Assembly (NCBI GenBank): GCA_963787205.1
Contig: CAWBCD010000009.1
Span: forward strand, 67,524 to 131,523
DNA: 64,000 nucleotides
Origin: an uncultured bacterium
Lineage (GTDB): Bacteria > Bacteroidota > Rhodothermia > Balneolales > DATFMH01
Direction: 5' to 3'
In this document: piece after piece, positions 4,259-52,762 of the stretch
How the letters are laid out: every line of letters begins with the position of its first letter
How positions within the stretch are numbered: the stretch's first letter is position 1
The notes under the pieces: model-generated
Database searches by the model: none
What the model was told of the DNA's origin: nothing
Seen by the model: only the letters and a program-made list of their open reading frames with translations
Program-made: the position numbers and the translations under genes

Positions 4259-4822
4259 CTATTTTTTGGTAGTGATCAATATTACGCCATTAGCCCCACG
4301 TGTACCGTAGATGGCGGCTGTTCCATCTTTTATAACATCAACGGAAGCAATATCCTGAGGATCTATCATGGTCAAAGCACTTTCCGCTGATACCGGCATG
4401 CCATCGATTACAAACAGCGGTCCACCCTGAAAATTAATGCTGTTGACTCCTCTGATCTGTATCCTATAACCATTGGGATTGCTGGGATCGTTCGATACTA
4501 ACACCCCGGGAACCCGTCCTATCAGGTATTCTGCCAGATTCGTATAAGGAGCAGATTGTAATGAAGAGATATTAACAGAGGAAATAGAGCCTGTAACCTG
4601 ATCACGTCTTTGAAAACCATAACCAACGTTCTGCATTATCGATTCATGGATTTGAAGAGAATCCAGTATGTTCGTGATAGTGGGAGTCTTAACAGTTTGG
4701 TATTCTACCTCGACTGCAGCTGTTTTAGAATCGGAGGTAGCTTTTTGATCTTTTTTTTCTTGTGCAAAAAGCTGCCCGGAAAATACAACACAAGTGAATA
4801 AACTGAGAATCACGAGTCTCAT
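4259..4822 (-). CDS. Secreted stand-alone TonB-dependent-receptor Plug-domain protein (no beta-barrel), paralog B
   Basis: It has a signal peptide and the same plug architecture ('VGYGFQRRDQVTGSISSV...IQIRGVNS...PLFVIDGMPV...IASVDVIKDGTAAIYGTRGANGVILITTKK' then stop). By eye it is roughly 40-45 percent identical to paralog A. Confidence 0.7.
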   Translation of the reverse strand: MRLVILSLFTCVVFSGQLFAQEKKDQKATSDSKTAAVEVEYQTVKTPTITNILDSLQIHESIMQNVGYGFQRRDQVTGSISSVNISSLQSAPYTNLAEYLIGRVPGVLVSNDPSNPNGYRIQIRGVNSINFQGGPLFVIDGMPVSAESALTMIDPQDIASVDVIKDGTAAIYGTRGANGVILITTKK

Positions 4823-7056: not shown

Positions 7057-7467
7057 ATGGCAAAGCGTCTGATAAAGCGATATGAAAATCGAAAGTTATA
7101 CGATAAAGAAGGCGGAAAATATATTTCTCTGGAAGAGATAGCCCAGCTCATCCGCGAGGGAGAACAAATACGCGTAGTGGATAATGCGACGCGTCGAGAT
7201 ATTACATCGCAAACCCTTACTCAAATTATACTTGAAGAAGGGAAACAGGGAAAAAATCCATTATCAAGCGATGTGTTGCATGAGATTATTCGGCGCGGCG
7301 GTTCTTTCTTTGAGGAGAGTGTGAAGCTGGTTAGAACGCGTCTTGACAGTTGGGTATCCGAACCGATCAGCAGGTTGGTCAATGGGCCCCGTGACTTTGA
7401 TGCTTTACAGAAGAGGATTGAAGAGCTTGAAAAACAAGTAAACGGACTTCATAACAAGACAAAGTGA
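7057..7467 (+). CDS. phaR: PhaR-like regulator (PHB/PHA accumulation regulator DNA-binding domain)
   Basis: 'RLIKRYENRKLYDKEGGKYISLEEIAQLIREGEQIRVVDNATRRDITSQTLTQIILEE' matches the PHB_acc_N domain pattern. The start is taken at 'MAKRL'. Confidence 0.8.
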   Translation: MAKRLIKRYENRKLYDKEGGKYISLEEIAQLIREGEQIRVVDNATRRDITSQTLTQIILEEGKQGKNPLSSDVLHEIIRRGGSFFEESVKLVRTRLDSWVSEPISRLVNGPRDFDALQKRIEELEKQVNGLHNKTK

Positions 7468-7944: not shown

Positions 7945-7964
7945 ATTGGATAAAATATGACTTA

Positions 7965-8001
7965 AAAAAGCCGCACCAGTCATGGGGCGGCTTTTTTATT
8001 T
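7965..8001 (+). terminator. Rho-independent terminator after the phasin gene
   Basis: AAAAAGCCGC-accagtcatgg-GCGGCTTTTTTATTTT: a GC-rich stem followed by a T-run, about 20 nt after the stop codon. Confidence 0.8.
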
Positions 8002-24464: not shown

Positions 24465-24587
24465 TTATCGACCAATAAGGAATTGGTGTGCAGGCGGTTT
24501 TACGATAAACTGACAGTTGTGATTATTGATAACTATAGTAACGTGAATTCGTGATAAGAAAACAGGATCTATTCAACCCCGGATTGT

Positions 24588-24607
24588 ATCCGCCGCGGCG
24601 GATTTTA
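24588..24607 (+). terminator. Candidate intrinsic terminator
   Basis: ATCCGC-cgcg-GCGGAT is a 16-bp perfect palindrome followed by TTTTA, about 125 nt after the GWxTD stop. Confidence 0.5.
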
Positions 24608-24704
24608 GTGTTCATTTGAAATGATGTTTTTTCTGTAAAAATTTAAAATCATTAACTTATGTGTAATTTTATGGTGAATTAAGCCCGAATGGACTTGAAC
24701 ATGA

Positions 24705-24911
24705 ATAGCACCGGGTGACAAGCCGGTTGCAGGACTTATCTATGGCATTTTCATCTGGACAGTGATGAATTTTCTGGTTGTGCCATTATCCAACACTCAG
24801 AAATTCCCATTAACCCTCAGTCATGCATTTTTTGGGGCACTGTATGTGATGTTTTGTGTCGGTTTGCCGGTATCGCTCATGTATCACCGTTTTAAAAGTA
24901 AAAATCTGTGA
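24705..24911 (+). pseudogene. C-terminal remnant of a small membrane protein
   Basis: The open frame '..GDKPVAGLIYGIFIWTVMNFLVVPLSNTQKFPLTLSHAFFGALYVMFCVGLPVSLMYHRFKSKNL*' begins right after a stop and has no plausible start before the first TM helix. Confidence 0.35.
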
Positions 24912-25055
24912 TTGGGATATTGGCAGAAACCACGTTGCCCATTCTGTTTTGAGCGCTATCAGTAGTTAACAATGTATTTTATCGTTGCTTGGAGCTCTGG
25001 ATTTTGATAGCTATAATCATTCCAATGACCTGCATTGAAATTCATACGGTGGATT

Positions 25056-25847
25056 ATGAGAAAGACAACTTTATTATCAATTCTGCTTTTACTGGCACTG
25101 AATGTGTCGGCTCAATCTCAAACTTCAGTCCCGAATACAACGGGTCCATGGGTTCAGCTTTTTAACGGGGAAAATCTTGACGGATGGATACCTAAGTTTG
25201 CAGGATATAAATCCGGTGTGAATTACAAGAATACGTTCCGTGTCGAAGACGGATTGCTGAAGGTGTCCTATGATCAGTACAAGCATTTTGACGGGCAGTT
25301 TGGTCATCTTTTCTATAAGAAGAAGTTCTCAAGCTATATCCTGAGAGTTGTGTACCGTTTTGTGGGAAAGCAGGTGCCGGGTGGTCCGGTTTGGGGATAC
25401 CGTAACAACGGCATCATGATTTTCTGCCAGTCGCCCCAAAGCATGCGTATAGATCAGGCCTATCCGGTTTCCGTAGAAGTGCAGCTGCTGGGCGGCAACG
25501 GGAAGGATAAGCGACCCACAGCCAATGGATGTACGCCAGGTACAAACATTGTGATCGGCGGCAAACTGATAACTCAACACTGCAATCCATCAACCTCCCC
25601 CACATTTAATGGTGATCAGTGGGTTACGGTGACCGTAGAAGTGCATTCAGATTCCCTGATCCGTAATTACGTAAACGGTAAGTCCGTCTTCCAGTTCAGC
25701 AAACCACAGCTTGATCCCGATGATCCGGATGGAAAGCGATTGTTACAGAAAGAGCCTAAAATTCTGAAAGACGGGTATATCTCAATACAGGCGGAAAGTG
25801 CGCCGACTGAGTTTAAGGTGATTGAGATTAAGGAAATCAAGGATTAG
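25056..25847 (+). CDS. DUF1080 (3-keto-disaccharide hydrolase-like) domain protein
   Basis: It has a signal peptide, 'WVQLFNGENLDGW', 'FRVEDGLL' and a C-terminal 'GYISIQAESAPTEFKVIEIKE'. Confidence 0.7.
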   Translation: MRKTTLLSILLLLALNVSAQSQTSVPNTTGPWVQLFNGENLDGWIPKFAGYKSGVNYKNTFRVEDGLLKVSYDQYKHFDGQFGHLFYKKKFSSYILRVVYRFVGKQVPGGPVWGYRNNGIMIFCQSPQSMRIDQAYPVSVEVQLLGGNGKDKRPTANGCTPGTNIVIGGKLITQHCNPSTSPTFNGDQWVTVTVEVHSDSLIRNYVNGKSVFQFSKPQLDPDDPDGKRLLQKEPKILKDGYISIQAESAPTEFKVIEIKEIKD

Positions 25848-25862
25848 AAATTCGAAAATAGA

Positions 25863-25918
25863 AATTAGGATGTCAGGCAGGGGTGATTCGCGAATCACCC
25901 CTGCCTGACATCCTAATT
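25863..25918. repeat. 56-bp perfect palindrome (28-bp arms)
   Basis: AATTAGGATGTCAGGCAGGGGTGATTCG|CGAATCACCCCTGCCTGACATCCTAATT, checked base by base. It lies between convergent genes and could act as a bidirectional terminator. Confidence 0.95.
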
Positions 25919-25934
25919 ATAAAATAGTCCATTG

Positions 25935-26492
25935 CTAGACCCTGCCTTTAGATTCACCGTTGACCAAGGCTGCACCAATGAGATGCGCTACGCGCAGGGG
26001 TTCGGGCATCGTAGATTTTTGGAGCGTGGATCGGATCAGTCTTTTGGCGTCATGTTCCGTCGTACCGGAGAAAGAGGCAAAAATTCCATCATCGATTTCT
26101 ACAGACGATGGATTGTTATTTAAAACGGGCAGCAAATCGGACAACCCTGCTGCTATGAGTGCTGTGTCGAGGGTGCTATTGTGGGTGTTCTGACGAGTGA
26201 CGGTGATCACCGGCAGGTTTAATTCCCGTGTAAGTGTAGGGAGATGCAACAACCCGAGTCCGGCGATGGTGATACCTCCAAAAACGATTCCCTGAAGGGA
26301 GGGTGTCCATCGCAGCTCCCTGATCCAGCCGATCAGGAATCGTGTTGCATCCGGATCGTCAATCTTCATCCTGTTCACGGCCACCCCATCGACCAAAGTG
26401 GCTCCCTCCATCATCACGGCCACGACAGGTACCGACGTGTCTTTTCCCTTCGTAAAGGGAGCATCGTCAATTCCAAGAACATGAGGTCGCAT
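25935..26492 (-). CDS. DUF99 / UPF0215 (endonuclease-V-like fold) family protein
   Basis: 'VLGIDDAPF...VPVVAVMMEG...DGVAV..MKIDDPDAT..L...I......LQGIVFGGITIAG' matches my memory of the mostly archaeal DUF99 family. Confidence 0.6.
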   Translation of the reverse strand: MRPHVLGIDDAPFTKGKDTSVPVVAVMMEGATLVDGVAVNRMKIDDPDATRFLIGWIRELRWTPSLQGIVFGGITIAGLGLLHLPTLTRELNLPVITVTRQNTHNSTLDTALIAAGLSDLLPVLNNNPSSVEIDDGIFASFSGTTEHDAKRLIRSTLQKSTMPEPLRVAHLIGAALVNGESKGRV

Positions 26493-26494
26493 AA

Positions 26495-26515
26495 CAGTAA
26501 TCAGTTAACAGTAAA
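26495..26515. repeat. Heptamer array CAGTAAT CAGTTAA CAGTAAA
   Basis: Three 7-bp units start 2 nt from the DUF99 start codon. Confidence 0.7.
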
Positions 26516-26527
26516 ACAATTAACACG

Positions 26528-26559
26528 ATGTAGGGGTGATTCGCGAATCACCCCTACAT
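26528..26559. repeat. 32-bp perfect palindrome sharing a 24-bp core with 25879-25902
   Basis: ATGTAGGGGTGATTCG|CGAATCACCCCTACAT. The core AGGGGTGATTCGCGAATCACCCCT is identical in both palindromes. Confidence 0.95.
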
Positions 26560-26720
26560 TCAATTCATAAAGGTAACAAGAAATAAAAACCGGGGAACCA
26601 GCATTCTCAAATTATTGTCCCATTAGACTCACCATTAGTAACTTTACCCTGTTGATCGCTGAAAGTTGACTGCCGATAGCTTTTAACACTTAAACACCCT
26701 CACACCTTAACACTTCCCAA

Positions 26721-27455
26721 ATGAATCTCACAGGAAATACCATTTTAATAACCGGTGGCACCTCCGGTATCGGTTTAGCCTTTACAAAAGAATTCCACAG
26801 GCTCGGAAACCAAATTATTATTTGCGGACGCAGAAAGGATCGGTTGAGTGATATTGGAAAACAGTACCCGGGCATTGTCACTAAGGCGTGTGATGTAAGC
26901 AGTGCAAAAGAAAGAGAAGAATTAGCAAAGTGGGCTGTTACTAATTATGATGATCTGAATGTGTTGATTAACAATGCAGGGATTCAATATGCTTTTGATT
27001 TCCAGAGTGCAGTGGATGCAAACAAACTCTATTCAGAAATTGATATCAATTTCAAGGCTCCCGTTCATCTTGCCTCGCTATTTGTGGGCCATCTGAAAAC
27101 AAAAACGCAATCGGCAATCATCAATATTTCTTCCGGACTGGCGTTCGTTCCCATCGCTTTTATGCCGGTATATTGCGCAACCAAGGCTGGTATCCACTCA
27201 TTTACTCTTTCCTTGCGGCATCAATTAAAAGACACCTCTATAAAAGTTTTTGAGATAGCGCCACCATCCGTTGACACGGAACTTGGTCATGATCGCAGAG
27301 CCGATAAGACACAAACACACGGAGGTATGCCGGTTGAGGAGTTTCTTAGAGAGGCTATGGAAGCTTTGGAAAATGATACCTACGAAGCTTTGATCGGTGG
27401 AGCCAAAAACCTGCACGATCAAAATGAAAAATTATTCGCCGCAATGAATCATTGA
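26721..27455 (+). CDS. Short-chain dehydrogenase/reductase (SDR) family oxidoreductase
   Basis: It has the 'ILITGGTSGIGLA' Rossmann motif, 'NNAG' and the 'YCATKAG' catalytic Y-x-x-x-K. Confidence 0.88.
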   Translation: MNLTGNTILITGGTSGIGLAFTKEFHRLGNQIIICGRRKDRLSDIGKQYPGIVTKACDVSSAKEREELAKWAVTNYDDLNVLINNAGIQYAFDFQSAVDANKLYSEIDINFKAPVHLASLFVGHLKTKTQSAIINISSGLAFVPIAFMPVYCATKAGIHSFTLSLRHQLKDTSIKVFEIAPPSVDTELGHDRRADKTQTHGGMPVEEFLREAMEALENDTYEALIGGAKNLHDQNEKLFAAMNH

Positions 27456-27532
27456 TACTTGACAATTCATAGGTAAAAACATCAGGGATTTGATATTGCC
27501 AGGACATGCAACGACTTTTCTGACCCTGACTT

Positions 27533-27605
<73 letters not shown>

Positions 27606-28847
27606 TTAAAACGACCACCGCAGCCTCGCATAAAGCAGGTTCGGTGTGGGGTAGATTTGCTCAATGGCCTTGTTGCGAATAATCTGTGCCAGCAGAAGAA
27701 AATCAATATCCTCGGTTACCGAATAGGTGATTTGCGGAATAATGATAGTCAGCCGGTTGGAGAAACCTTCAATTCCGGATAATCCTACATTAAGAAGAGG
27801 TGTCGCCGGAAACGTTACCTGGGCAAAGCCGGCTGTACGGGTGATGAACAGGTTGTTGGCCTGCAACGTCTCACCAAATAAAGCTTGCGGATTTAGTCTG
27901 GACGGGGCATTTCCGTTATAGAGGAACTCGCCGCTGATATAGAGACCGCTGCTAAAGGCATAGTCGCCCGATGTAGACAATAGCAGGTAGAAATTTTTTG
28001 CAGGATGGGAATATAGCGGGTGATAGATTGAAAACTCTCCCTTAAACCCTGCCTGGCCGATGGAACCGGCCCAGCCACCACCCACAACGGCCTGATCGTG
28101 ATAGTAGCCTCCCAGAAACTGCAGATCATATAATCCTTTATGCGTGCGAATCAGGATTGCTCCAACCGATTGCTTCATATTGTGCCGATCCGGTTTGAAG
28201 GCAAATTCGTACCCGGAGGCAAACCCACTGAAATACTGCAGACGGATGGCATCGGAACCCGGCTTCTCCTCGTAATCGAAGTCCAGATAGGAATAGGCGT
28301 TGAACAGGTCGTTGGGATTCCAAACATATGTTTTCCCCCAGTTGATGCGCTGCCGTCCCACGTCGAGCTCCCATTTTCCGGAATACCAGGTGGCATATAA
28401 ACGGTCGATGGAGGTATTCAGGATGGTCTGTTTGGTATCGATCCAGTTCCAGCTCAGATCCACGAGTCCCTGGTCCTGGGAGATTATTGAACCATACCCG
28501 GGTGTATGCCGAACCGTGTATCCATTAAACAACCGCGTTCTCTCGGCTGCATTGATCTGAAAAGACATATTTGGCTTCCATTGAAAATTAACCCGGTTGT
28601 GAAGCAGGTTGTCATAATGAAGAGTCTGGAAGGAGTTATCAACCTGGAGCATCCCCAATTCTTTGACGTAGCCATTAGCCGTCAGATGGGGAATACGAAA
28701 CTGGCCGTAAGCCAGAAAGGGAACCAACAAAAGCAGGAAAGCTATAACGAAACCCGCCGTGATTTTTCGTGCCTGTGTGGCGATTCTCAAAAGGTAATCT
28801 CTCTTACGTTTAGTTTTATTTGAATAATAGTATAGTCTGAGATTCAT
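27606..28847 (-). CDS. Putative outer-membrane beta-barrel protein (last gene of the ABC operon)
   Basis: It has an N-terminal anchor/signal 'AGFVIAFLLLLVPFLAYGQ', an alternating beta-strand-like sequence rich in Y/G/N, and a C-terminal '...YARLRWSF' aromatic terminus typical of OMPs. Confidence 0.55.
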   Translation of the reverse strand: MNLRLYYYSNKTKRKRDYLLRIATQARKITAGFVIAFLLLLVPFLAYGQFRIPHLTANGYVKELGMLQVDNSFQTLHYDNLLHNRVNFQWKPNMSFQINAAERTRLFNGYTVRHTPGYGSIISQDQGLVDLSWNWIDTKQTILNTSIDRLYATWYSGKWELDVGRQRINWGKTYVWNPNDLFNAYSYLDFDYEEKPGSDAIRLQYFSGFASGYEFAFKPDRHNMKQSVGAILIRTHKGLYDLQFLGGYYHDQAVVGGGWAGSIGQAGFKGEFSIYHPLYSHPAKNFYLLLSTSGDYAFSSGLYISGEFLYNGNAPSRLNPQALFGETLQANNLFITRTAGFAQVTFPATPLLNVGLSGIEGFSNRLTIIIPQITYSVTEDIDFLLLAQIIRNKAIEQIYPTPNLLYARLRWSF

Positions 28848-32162: not shown

Positions 32163-32202
32163 TCAGTTAACAGTTAATAGTTAACAGTTAGCAGTAAACA
32201 GT
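32163..32202. repeat. Heptamer array CAGTTAA CAGTTAA TAGTTAA CAGTTAG CAGTAAA CAGTG
   Basis: There are about 5.5 units, beginning 1 nt from the permease start codon. Confidence 0.9.
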
Positions 32203-32274: not shown

Positions 32275-32643
32275 ATGATGAAGAATAATTTGTATGATAA
32301 ATCGTACGCCTTTTCGTTGAGTATCATCAGGAATTATCAATTTTTGATTTCTGAAAAACATGAGTACATCCTCTCGCGTCAGTTGTTAAAGTGCGGCACA
32401 TCTATTGGAGCAAATGTTTCAGAAGCAAATGGAGCGATATCAACGGAAGATTTTTCAGCTAAAATTTCAATAGCATACAAAGAATGTCTTGAGACCAAAT
32501 ATTGGTTATCTCTTCTGAAAGATGCCCGATACATTGAACAGTCAACATTCGAAGAACTACATCCTAAAGCCGACGAACTTGCCAAAATCCTCTTCTCGAT
32601 TCTTAAAAAAACACGCATAAACAAGGCCTCCGGTAACTGTTAA
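32275..32643 (+). CDS. Four-helix-bundle protein (23S rRNA intervening-sequence protein family)
   Basis: It is 122 aa. 'YDKSYAFSLSIIRNYQFL...SRQLLKCGTSIGANVSEANGAIS..DF..K..IA.KE..ET.YWL.LL' is the hallmark of this family. It lies on the opposite strand from the surrounding operon. Confidence 0.85.
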   Translation: MMKNNLYDKSYAFSLSIIRNYQFLISEKHEYILSRQLLKCGTSIGANVSEANGAISTEDFSAKISIAYKECLETKYWLSLLKDARYIEQSTFEELHPKADELAKILFSILKKTRINKASGNC

Positions 32644-32667
32644 CTGTTTATTGGTTACTGATCACTG
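32633..32667. repeat. Inverted heptamer array GTAACTG TTAACTG TTTATTG GTTACTG ATCACTG
   Basis: The unit is the reverse complement of the 32163 array. It covers the stop codons of both convergent genes. Confidence 0.85.
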
Positions 32668-34912: not shown

Positions 34913-35144
34913 CTGAAAGATCTGAATTATAATTGACTGAACGTTCAATCAAAATATTATATTTGTTTTTAATTTCCAATAGGTGTTAGAAGCGAAGTCA
35001 AAAAAAACACGTTAGCAGCGCTTCATTTTTTTATGTCAGATAGAATCAAAGAGAATGAACAAATCATGTATTATTACCTTTTCCTGTGATTCTCTATTTT
35101 ACCGGAGTGAGAGTGAGTAACCGTAAGGATAAATCAGGATTATC

Positions 35145-42219: not shown

Positions 42220-43257
42220 CTAGCGCCTATCAATTCCTTTTTTTAACGATGACTTTCGAATCACAAGGTCGGGGTCCAGCACCGTCTTTTCCTGATTATG
42301 AAGCAGTTCTTTGTTATCAACCTGTCTCAGAAACAGTTTTGCTGCCGTCTGTCCCATCATCTTGCCATGCTGGTCAATAGTAGTAAGAGCCGGATCTACA
42401 AATGTGGTGAAGACCTCATTACTGAATCCGACAATAGCAATTTGTTCAGGGATTTTGATACCATGCCTTTTCAGGTGATGCATGGCACCGATAGCCGTGT
42501 AATCACTTGCTGAGAATATAGCATCGGGCAACGGATGCATGGCAAGCACCTGTTTGCCCAATTCTTCCCCTGTTTCAAGTTGAGTCTCACCATATAGCAC
42601 AAGGTTTTTGTCGAAGTTCAGACCGTTGGTGATCAGTGCCTGTTTATAACCCCTGAGCCGTTCTTTATAAATACTTAAATTCTGCTGGCCGCTGAAGTGC
42701 ACAATACGCCGGCATCCTTGATGGATCAGATGCTCAACGGCTTTATAGGCTCCAAGAAAATCGTCGATGACCACGGAGCTGGTATTGAGTTCGTCCGTAA
42801 CGCGGTCAAACAGGATAAGAGGTATGCCCCGTTTCTTTATTTTCAGGTAATGATCAAATTCAACGGTATCCTTGGCGATTGATGCAAGAATTCCATCAAC
42901 CTGGGCTTCCAAAAGTGCATCAATGTTAGCTTTTTCTTTGGATATCAGATCATTGGACTGACTGATGATTACACGGTATCCGGACCTGTTTACCACTTCT
43001 TCAATTCCCCGGATGATTGTACCAAAAAAGTTACGGTCTGCCGTTGGTACAATGACCCCGATCAGATTGCTCTTCCCCTTTCGGAGTGCTGCTGCAAGGC
43101 TATTGTGCTGATAGTTTAACTTTCGGGCAACCTCAAGAACGGCTTCTTTCGTTTCCCGGCTGATCCGGGGGTGGTCCTGCAAAGCCCTGGAAACAGTAGA
43201 AGCTGTTACATTCAGCTCTTTAGCGATATCATGGATGGTAGTTCTTTTCTTTGCCAT
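42220..43257 (-). CDS. LacI family transcriptional regulator
   Basis: It has the HTH 'TTIHDIAKELNVTASTVSRALQDHPRIS' and a periplasmic-binding-protein-like core. Confidence 0.92.
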   Translation of the reverse strand: MAKKRTTIHDIAKELNVTASTVSRALQDHPRISRETKEAVLEVARKLNYQHNSLAAALRKGKSNLIGVIVPTADRNFFGTIIRGIEEVVNRSGYRVIISQSNDLISKEKANIDALLEAQVDGILASIAKDTVEFDHYLKIKKRGIPLILFDRVTDELNTSSVVIDDFLGAYKAVEHLIHQGCRRIVHFSGQQNLSIYKERLRGYKQALITNGLNFDKNLVLYGETQLETGEELGKQVLAMHPLPDAIFSASDYTAIGAMHHLKRHGIKIPEQIAIVGFSNEVFTTFVDPALTTIDQHGKMMGQTAAKLFLRQVDNKELLHNQEKTVLDPDLVIRKSSLKKGIDRR

Positions 43258-45629: not shown

Positions 45630-45649
45630 TTGCGCAATCGATTGCGCAA
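45630..45649. promoter_or_regulatory. 20-bp perfect palindrome; candidate LacI-family operator in front of uxaA
   Basis: TTGCGCAATC|GATTGCGCAA lies 17-36 nt upstream of the uxaA start codon. No U-run follows it on either strand. Confidence 0.45.
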
Positions 45650-52611: not shown

Positions 52612-52641
52612 AGTAGTGGAAGTAGTGAGTAGTGAGTAGTG
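52612..52641. repeat. Heptamer array AGTAGTG (ga) AGTAGTG AGTAGTG AGTAGTG
   Basis: There are four units, one offset by 2 nt, followed by TTGCAAG-TTTGCAAG-TTGTGAC. It lies in the divergent region between the his leader and the aldo/keto reductase gene. Confidence 0.85.
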
Positions 52642-52762
52642 AGACCTGTTGCAAGTTTGCAAGTTGTGACCTATCCCGACGAGACTTCATGAATCTTCTT
52701 TTGCACAAATGTGTTATAGCCACAAACGAATTCAGAATATATTTAAGTAAGCAGAGATAATT

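Follow-up and report, generated by a model that had tools for sequence, protein, structure and literature searches.

What are two perfect palindromes with an identical core doing on either side of a single gene? The question is raised by a stretch of 64,000 nucleotides from an uncultured bacterium of the Balneolales (GenBank assembly GCA_963787205.1, contig CAWBCD010000009.1, positions 67,524 to 131,523 of the forward strand), which we call the window. An earlier reading of this DNA, here called the sequence-only reading, had described a 56-bp and a 32-bp perfect palindrome that together bracket exactly one gene, now assigned to the nuclease family Endo_dU (formerly DUF99 or UPF0215). It had offered two explanations: the palindromes belong to a repeat family that also provides a bidirectional terminator, or they are the ends of a single-gene cassette acquired horizontally. 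They lie beside a vertically inherited gene, and we lean, though not strongly, towards the view that they are copies of an element resembling the repetitive extragenic palindromes (REPs), that they would act as RNA stem-loops, and that their perfection comes from templated correction.

Both palindromes were recovered by direct reading and by a repeat search. The downstream one, past the 3' end of the gene, is made of two 28-nt arms (25863-25890 and 25891-25918) and the upstream one of two 16-nt arms (26528-26543 and 26544-26559). The arms are 100% complementary in each case with a spacer of 0. The repeat search found no other spacer-free perfect palindromes of such size in the 64 kb, and a simple calculation puts the chance expectation for a 32-bp perfect palindrome in that length at about 1.5e-5. 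The 24-bp core reported for both, AGGGGTGATTCGCGAATCACCCCT, is indeed present in each and nowhere else in the window; a third match was not found even at 3 mismatches, and 100 shuffles gave 0 matches. A covariance model of the palindrome family (model R1), run without filters on the window, likewise returned two sites only, at 53 and 47 bits, with the runner-up at 13.6 bits (E = 0.26). The family unit reads GTAG-GGGTGATT-CGCG-AATCACCC-CTAC and is 28 nt long, with a stem of 8-12 bp and a CGCG loop. The upstream palindrome includes this canonical unit, GTAG...CTAC.

The bracketed gene is also single, as described, and its 185-aa product matches PF01949 at E = 7.7e-33 (113.8 bits against a cut-off of 32.7, residues 4-176) and PDB 2QH9 at E = 4e-20. 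Endo_dU proteins are endonucleases that cut DNA 3' of deoxyuridine, and the bacterial members are monophyletic, forming one clade (PMC11585767). By family membership, then, this is a uracil-repair nuclease gene. The label "archaeal-type" given to it by the sequence-only reading does not hold, since each of the 120 closest homologues comes from a bacterium (Balneolales, Rhodothermales and Gemmatimonadales) and the bacterial clade is monophyletic. Identities are 74-88% in the Balneolales, which are nearest, and fall to about 55% in the Rhodothermales and 51% in the Gemmatimonadales. By eye the gene had seemed richer in GC than its neighbours, and it is slightly so (0.525 vs 0.462 and 0.424) but no outlier: among the 53 open reading frames (ORFs) of the window, with a mean GC of 0.464 and a standard deviation of 0.039, its z is 1.6, and z is 1.2 for GC at third codon positions (GC3). 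Judged by homology, composition and the gene order described below, Endo_dU here is an ordinary, vertically inherited bacterial repair gene.

A metagenome scan for DUF99 relatives gave 4 loci. Contigs on which the gene order is conserved come from six Balneolales lineages at 86-88% protein identity (L090-L094, L103, L106 and L108/L109). Their order is two MacB/FtsX genes, an ABC ATPase gene, a gene for a 388-aa protein, an optional short-chain dehydrogenase gene and Endo_dU, followed by a convergent 3-keto-disaccharide hydrolase family gene, a gene for a 663-aa protein and HisA. The genes of the cluster that run in the same direction are TetR, LolA-like, FtsX, FtsX, ABC ATPase, the 388-aa protein and Endo_dU. 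Endo_dU has the same orientation relative to the 3-keto-disaccharide hydrolase gene in 11 of the 11 assemblies of these syntenic relatives that reach that gene. More distant relatives, at 75-81% identity, carry Endo_dU in other genomic contexts, and there the palindromes are not present.

At the matching positions the palindromes are found in several states. L092 carries at the upstream site a perfect 32-mer, ATGTAGCGGTGATTCGCGAATCACCGCTACAT, with a compensatory G:C to C:G change, and L108 a decayed copy, GGTGATTTGCTAATCAC, that retains the inner stem GGTGATT-TGCT-AATCAC. A different stable hairpin with the same GTA...TAC ends, GTAAGGGTAATC-ACTGGG-GATTACCTCTAC (-17.3 kcal/mol, z = -3.9), occupies the site in L103/L106, and L090 and L091 have weak versions only. 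Model R1 does not recognise the hairpins of L103, L090 and L091, which have diverged too far. Their homology to the canonical unit is uncertain; they share with it about 65% identity, the GTA...TAC ends and the position. At the downstream site a hairpin is found in the window only. L092 and L108 keep relics of the core (19/24 and about 16/21 positions, in a spacer that aligns with the window's), and L090, L091 and L103 have nothing. The two cores of the window show zero changes over 48 nt, whereas the downstream copies of the sister lineages have lost 5-6 positions each, a sign of conversion or selection in the lineage of the window.

A third family member is present on L092 at 4558-4611, and also in L093, L094 and L102. 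It is a 54-bp near-perfect palindrome, ATATAATCGTGCTGTAGGGGCGCTTCGCGTAGCGCCCCTACAGCACGATTATAT, around GTAGGGGCGCTTCGCGTAGCGCCCCTAC, and lies in the spacer between the ABC ATPase gene and a 390-aa gene; the window, L090 and L091 have other sequence there. This member is specific to the L092 lineage and, therefore, the family has been present and copying within this clade. Each of the last three genes of the same-direction cluster is followed by a family member in the L092 lineage. In 77 kb of relatives model R1 found copies only next to DUF99, and in all the Balneolales sequence that we read, about 140 kb, the family was seen only around the Endo_dU gene cluster. The ABC ATPase/390-aa spacer of L090 and L091 holds an unrelated multi-hairpin element with the ends CTCGTTCC...GGAACGAG.

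Pairing within the family is conserved. Among 18 members, 7 of the 12 stem pairs have changed on both sides and 91% of cells are paired, a result matched by 0 of 500 shuffles. This covariation supports conserved pairing or dyad symmetry, and would be expected of an RNA hairpin and of a symmetric DNA site alike. At the downstream palindrome the window and L108 have the same right arm, CCTGACATCCTAATT, and different left arms: L108 and L092 both read AATTT, and the window reads AATTA, the base required for symmetry. Because of this, one arm seems to have been rewritten from the other. Quasi-palindrome correction (intrastrand template switching), or conversion between copies, would replace one arm by the complement of its partner. 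Such a process at the level of DNA best accounts for the exact symmetry, for the length of the downstream palindrome (56 bp) and for the two cores being identical, and we consider that perfect symmetry is probably maintained by templated correction. A recent acquisition of the palindromes is not needed to explain it.

Quasi-palindrome template-switch mutation was reportedly described by Ripley in 1982 and by the Lovett laboratory. The resemblance is that one imperfect arm becomes the exact complement of the other, which fits the asymmetry between the window and L108/L092. The difference is that the process is known from laboratory mutation assays, and here it would have acted in nature over some 16-28 nt. 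Long perfect palindromes with the same centre and unrelated arms recur in the third copy of L092 (54 bp) and in L084 of the Chloroflexota (54 bp). The latter, at 7072-7125, is perfect over its whole length around the same 20-bp centre. A 72-bp perfect palindrome was also seen near the end of L025 (4436-4455), from a Microcoleaceae genome bin; it stands at a contig end and may be an assembly artefact.

As RNA, the downstream palindrome is predicted to fold at -49.9 kcal/mol (z = -11.9) and the upstream one at -22 to -23 kcal/mol (z = -5.1). The downstream palindrome forms the centre of the 87-bp spacer that separates the convergent stop codons of Endo_dU and the 3-keto-disaccharide hydrolase gene, and begins 16 nt past the former and 15 nt past the latter. 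Read on the Endo_dU strand, its tail is a U-rich but interrupted tract, AAUUUCUAUUUUCG, and a consensus scan flagged the palindrome as terminator-like on the minus strand. On the plus strand the tail is A-rich. An ordinary terminator of this genome is found at 7963-7998, after a phasin gene, and is a textbook bidirectional intrinsic one, AAAAAAGCCGC...GCGGCTTTTTT.

The upstream palindrome does not follow a stop codon in the window. Next to it is a block, TATTTCTTGTTACCTTTATG, that is conserved in all six same-order relatives, with alignment columns 2-13 invariant. Within this block, TACCTTTA resembles the Bacteroidetes -7 promoter box, TAnnTTTG. We propose that the block is the Endo_dU promoter. 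Because the dehydrogenase gene of the window is divergent, the Endo_dU promoter must lie in the 228-bp spacer between the two genes, and with a promoter there the mRNA would begin at the upstream hairpin or close to it.

In an ancestor of this Balneolales lineage, copies of the element came to occupy the last intergenic spacers of the same-direction cluster. For these copies we suggest the following roles. The downstream stem-loop would end the Endo_dU transcript and protect its 3' end. It would also halt the transcript that runs into it from the convergent 3-keto-disaccharide hydrolase gene. The upstream stem-loop would form at the very start of the Endo_dU mRNA, or close to it, and serve to insulate or stabilise the message. 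Where relatives lack the dehydrogenase gene, the copy at this site would also lie 3' of the upstream gene, in the manner of a REP within an operon. With hairpins at both ends, the nuclease gene would be insulated from outside transcription and its message protected.

The same sequence occurs in distant bacteria. We scanned the exact 20-mer GGGTGATTCGCGAATCACCC against species-representative genomes. The 20-mer was found at 89 loci in other genomes, where about 0.5 are expected by chance (arithmetic from database size). Most are in marine filamentous cyanobacteria (Okeania, Dapis, Trichodesmium and Oscillatoriaceae), with about 20-25 loci per genome in Okeania SIO2F4 and in Oscillatoriaceae M33_DOE_052. 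The cyanobacterial consensus is GTAGGGGTGATTCGCGAATCACCCCTAC, the GTAG tag is present in most copies, and the full 32-mer of the window's upstream palindrome recurs exactly in two cyanobacterial loci, L002 and L026. Single copies were found in Anaerolineales, Dehalococcoidia, another member of the Chloroflexota, Cloacimonadota, a Porphyromonadaceae genome bin, Acidobacteriaceae and Rhodobacterales. At the matching loci of two genome pairs from the Anaerolineales and Dehalococcoidia (L010/L038 and L043/L079) the 20-mer is 100% conserved and the flanks have diverged.

The surroundings of these copies vary. Some cyanobacterial 28-mers lie within heptamer arrays (AGTCAGA), others inside a family of miniature inverted-repeat transposable elements (MITEs, small non-coding transposon derivatives) with the ends CAGGACTTACGCA...TGCGTAAGTCCTG, and still others in frame in very large ORFs, such as that of L001 at 2855, which reads VGVIRESPL in an 1850-aa protein. 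A tblastn search with the Endo_dU protein found no DUF99 homologue near the palindrome at any of the 89 loci. Searches of plasmids (7.3 Gb) and phage genomes (2.3 Gb) found no copy, and IMG/VR gave one match to the 20-mer (L101, 4451-4470), within a larger inverted repeat, CTTGACAACACC...GGTGTCAAG. An Rfam scan of 24500-28000 returned only spurious microRNA and small-RNA matches far under the thresholds. A full-text search of the published literature for the 18-mer found no paper, and the sequence is absent from the supplements of the GTAG-REP survey.

Other observations concern these copies. Two features of cyanobacterial loci, the palindrome in frame within very large ORFs and short tandem repeats of its half-site, CGCGAATCACCCCTACA, adjoining full copies, were noted at L001, L032, L054, L076 and L080 and at L045, L046 and L049. 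In three genomes the palindrome lies just 3' of truB, the gene for tRNA pseudouridine-55 synthase: L043 (92-111) and L079 (5513-5532) of the Dehalococcoidia and L065 (1613-1632) of Okeania. The core GGTGA-TTCGCGAA-TCACC loosely resembles a tRNA T-arm, possibly by coincidence.

Taken by their sequence features, the palindromes are best called REP-like rather than REPs. The unit is a short stem-loop palindrome (20-40 bp being the REP range) of 28 nt and -22 kcal/mol with covariation at 7 of 12 pairs. Its terminal tag is GTAG...CTAC in the upstream palindrome and GCAG...CTGC in the downstream one, a GYAG form that is allowed beside GTAG and GTRG. REPs are extragenic and lie between same-direction or convergent ORFs; the downstream palindrome lies between convergent stop codons, and the upstream one and the third copy of L092 are flanked by genes of one direction in relatives that lack the dehydrogenase gene. 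Published GTAG REPs have 6-13-bp stems and 2-4-nt loops and occur between ORFs of these two orientations (Di Nocera et al. 2013, PMC3733652). They are likewise 20-40-bp GC-rich stem-loop units headed by GTAG or GYAG (PMC3733652; Nunvar et al. 2010, PMC2817692), with minimal loops and with subfamilies that differ by compensatory stem changes, and are thought to act as RNA hairpins. They are known from Proteobacteria, Cyanobacteria, Chloroflexi and the PVC group (PMC3733652), and the Cyanobacteria and Chloroflexi are the phyla that hold most copies of the 20-mer. From phyla related to the Bacteroidetes the same survey reported CGTC-type repeats only and no GTAG REPs (PMC3733652). The differences are that the palindrome centre is here itself palindromic, that GTAG REPs typically number more than 100 dispersed copies whereas 2-3 are visible in the Balneolales at one locus, and that a RAYT gene flanked by the repeats is typical and none is found among the 53 ORFs of the window. 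The repeat-family explanation of the sequence-only reading is thus supported in kind, by the GTAG tag, the GC-rich stem-loop and the multiple copies in other genomes.

Three further comparisons are useful. E. coli REP hairpins, for example in the malE-malF spacer, reportedly stabilise mRNA within operons (Newbury et al. 1987). The L092 lineage, with a family member after each of the last three cluster genes, has the same arrangement for differential 3' protection; in the window, unlike at malE-malF, the oppositely oriented inserted dehydrogenase gene uncouples the upstream palindrome from the gene before it. Intrinsic terminators share the GC-rich stem followed by a U-rich stretch just past a stop codon, but the stems here are far longer (26 and 14 pairs), the U-tracts are broken, and the sequence is common to both sites and to other phyla. 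The small dispersed repeats (SDRs) of the Nostocaceae are said to be 21-27-nt hairpins found in tandem heptamer arrays and mini-transposons (Elhai et al. 2008). Cyanobacterial copies of our 28-mer lie in heptamer arrays and mini-transposons as well, the window copies adjoin heptamer arrays, and compensatory mutations are common to both; the likeness is one of context. SDR-like repeats were not found outside the Nostocaceae (PMC5861425). The 28-mer, unlike SDRs, has copies in Oscillatoriales, Microcoleaceae, Chloroflexi and Balneolales.

Several findings weigh against the reading that we favour. The RNA stem-loop role and the transcription start are predicted from sequence, the U-tract is imperfect after either stem, and the downstream hairpin is dispensable, as four of six syntenic lineages show no trace of it and two hold mere relics. 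Two copies in 64 kb, both at one gene, are not a REP-like copy number for the sequence read here, and the tag is here on both strands and paired, whereas in published REPs it is unpaired and at one end. No Y1/RAYT transposase was found in the window, and none is recurrent among the 111 ORFs that flank copies elsewhere. The exact 20-mer is in no Balneolales genome of the collection searched. Finally, the palindromic centre is exact at the matching Chloroflexi loci despite the diverged flanks, and such conservation resembles recognition of a specific sequence more than it does a plain hairpin. As a tentative possibility, the 28-nt GTAGGGGTGATTCGCGAATCACCCCTAC could be a very small cross-phylum sequence-specific element, abundant in marine filamentous cyanobacteria and sporadic yet conserved in Chloroflexi, Balneolales and other bacteria, that is spread or maintained by a horizontally moving factor recognising the exact sequence. 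It would also grow by copying its flanks in inverted form from a template. In that case the window copies would be left over from transfer between bacteria that plausibly share habitats, and self-enlargement would yield the 54-56-bp perfect palindromes of three unrelated genomes.

The palindromes might also be neutral relics of a tiny selfish palindromic element of the cyanobacterial SDR kind, inserted in heptamer-rich spacers, self-correcting and without host function. The heptamer arrays, MITEs and in-frame ORFs that hold the cyanobacterial 28-mer are what such an element would lead one to expect, as are the heptamer arrays adjoining the window copies, the decay of the downstream copy in L092 and L108, its absence from L090, L091 and L103, and the confinement of the third copy to the L092 lineage. 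We find this doubtful: of the five lineages folded, three (window, L092 and L103) have a hairpin at the upstream site, with compensatory changes, the window cores are unchanged over 48 nt where 5-6 positions have been lost in each sister lineage, the matching Anaerolineales and Dehalococcoidia loci retain the 20-mer exactly although their flanks have diverged, and no mobilising enzyme was found in the window or recurrently near copies. That exact conservation across Chloroflexi species pairs, beyond pairing, would suit an operator, as would the spacer-free dyad symmetry that includes the centre, the identity of the two cores and the position of the upstream palindrome at the predicted transcription start. 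In that case a dimeric regulator would control the nuclease by binding the palindromic duplex on either side of the gene, perhaps with the intervening 653 bp drawn into a loop. This seems to us unlikely, as there are 20-25 copies per cyanobacterial genome, in MITEs and coding regions, neither palindrome has a regulator gene beside it, relatives have lost the downstream site, and 56 bp far exceeds the length of an operator. The likely operators of the window differ as well, namely TTGCGCAATCGATTGCGCAA near a LacI gene and TTGACTGAACGTTCAATCAA upstream of a TetR operon; these are different palindromes that adjoin or lie upstream of their regulator genes, and we reject a TetR or LacI operator identity for ours. 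Highly improbable, in our view, is a mobile or recombining unit, either an acquired cassette or a segment that inverts or is deleted between the 24-bp cores. It could appeal to the bracketing of exactly one gene, to the double nature of a palindrome, which repeats itself in direct and in inverted orientation, to the 24-bp length, which is near the minimum for homologous recombination, and to the different contexts of the gene in more distant Balneolales; but those other-context relatives are the ones without palindromes, and the 89 other copies all lack a DUF99 gene in their vicinity. The cassette reading fails because the gene order is conserved, the palindromes decay in place, GC is unremarkable (z = 1.6) and the phylogeny of the gene is bacterial. 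In the relatives the segment does not come and go as a unit: the gene is kept in six lineages, in the same order and orientation, whatever the state of the palindromes. Nor is there a nearby mobilising gene or foreign composition (GC3 z = 1.2); Pfam scans of the 53 window ORFs gave no match to a transposase, integrase, recombinase or invertase, and housekeeping genes were seen. An inverton was rejected on the lack of an invertase in the 64 kb and the single orientation in all eleven syntenic assemblies.

Table 1. Features of the palindrome locus, with positions in the window
Feature	Position	Strand	Description
Downstream palindrome	25863..25918	.	56 bp, perfect; family core with 16-bp locus-specific arms
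24-bp core AGGGGTGATTCGCGAATCACCCCT, copy 1	25879..25902	.	Tag GCAG...CTGC; covariance model 47.2 bits
Upstream palindrome ATGTAGGGGTGATTCGCGAATCACCCCTACAT	26528..26559	.	32 bp, perfect; 35 nt 5' of the Endo_dU ATG
24-bp core AGGGGTGATTCGCGAATCACCCCT, copy 2	26532..26555	.	Covariance model 53.1 bits
Endo_dU gene (formerly DUF99 / UPF0215)	25935..26492	-	185 aa; Pfam PF01949, PDB 2QH9
Conserved block TATTTCTTGTTACCTTTATG	26566..26585	-	8 nt 5' of the upstream palindrome; candidate Endo_dU promoter
Loose heptamer array	26492..26525	-	Directly 5' of the Endo_dU start codon; ACTGTTA / ACTGATT on the gene strand
3-keto-disaccharide hydrolase family gene	25035..25847	+	Pfam PF06439, E = 4.9e-31; convergent neighbour
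Short-chain dehydrogenase gene	26721..27455	+	Pfam PF00106; divergent neighbour

Of the two neighbouring genes (Table 1), the 3-keto-disaccharide hydrolase gene is conserved beside Endo_dU in L090-L094, L106 and L108. The dehydrogenase gene is shared by the window, L090 and L109 and is missing from L091, L092 and L103/L106. In the window it sits between Endo_dU and the 388-aa gene, which elsewhere directly adjoins Endo_dU on its upstream side. The dehydrogenase segment of about 1.1 kb (gene 26721-27455, flanks 26640-26720 and 27456-27605) has similar heptamer arrays on both sides, with (CGGTCAG)12 at one boundary and CGGCAGTCA..CAGCGATCA at the other, and recombination between arrays could delete or insert it. 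An 8-mer repeat, TTAACACC, is present in 3.9 copies at 26683-26713, immediately 5' of the dehydrogenase start codon.

The sequence-only reading had described a CAGTNAA heptamer array at 26495-26515. The array is real but loose and spans 26492-26525, where Tandem Repeats Finder gives a period of 7, 4.7 copies and 67% matches. Most relatives, among them some with the gene in other genomic contexts, have an ACTGWTA-type array immediately 5' of the Endo_dU start codon; eight copies of GATAACT lie just 5' of the DUF99 ATG in L099 and L100, and L098 and L110 have no array at that place. Heptamer arrays occupy several spacers of the window (26492-26525, 27520-27605, 32164-32202, 32634-32648 and 52621-52643), and their units (TAACAGT, CTGACCG x12, CAGTTAA x5.6 and AGTAGTG) resemble cyanobacterial short tandem heptamer repeats. 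Heptamer repeats adjoin the start codons of DNA-repair genes in Nostoc (preprint 10.1101/2022.06.06.494920).

Elsewhere in the window, a gene of low GC (0.366) at 32275-32643 encodes a four-helix-bundle protein of the 23S_rRNA_IVP family and is flanked at 32164-32202 and 32634-32660 by inverted heptamer arrays, CAGTTAA x5 and TTAACTG x2-3. It is found elsewhere in L091 and is absent in L092-L094, and so behaves as a variable insert in a conserved cluster. The operator-like palindrome TTGCGCAATCGATTGCGCAA is at 45630-45649, 17 nt upstream of an altronate dehydratase gene and near a LacI-family gene (42220-43257), and TTGACTGAACGTTCAATCAA is at 34933-34952, upstream of a methyltransferase-TetR operon.

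For Endo_dU the outcome is deflationary, in that the striking palindromes are no marker of horizontal transfer; identical palindromes that flank a gene are by themselves no evidence of a cassette. The long perfect palindromes that recur around one core would illustrate templated palindrome growth in nature. The element itself is of interest as an identical 28-32-nt REP-like hairpin found in Cyanobacteria, Chloroflexi and Balneolota with no transposase visibly attached to it. If a common recognition factor exists, it would bear on how REPs and 'very small mobile repeats' spread.

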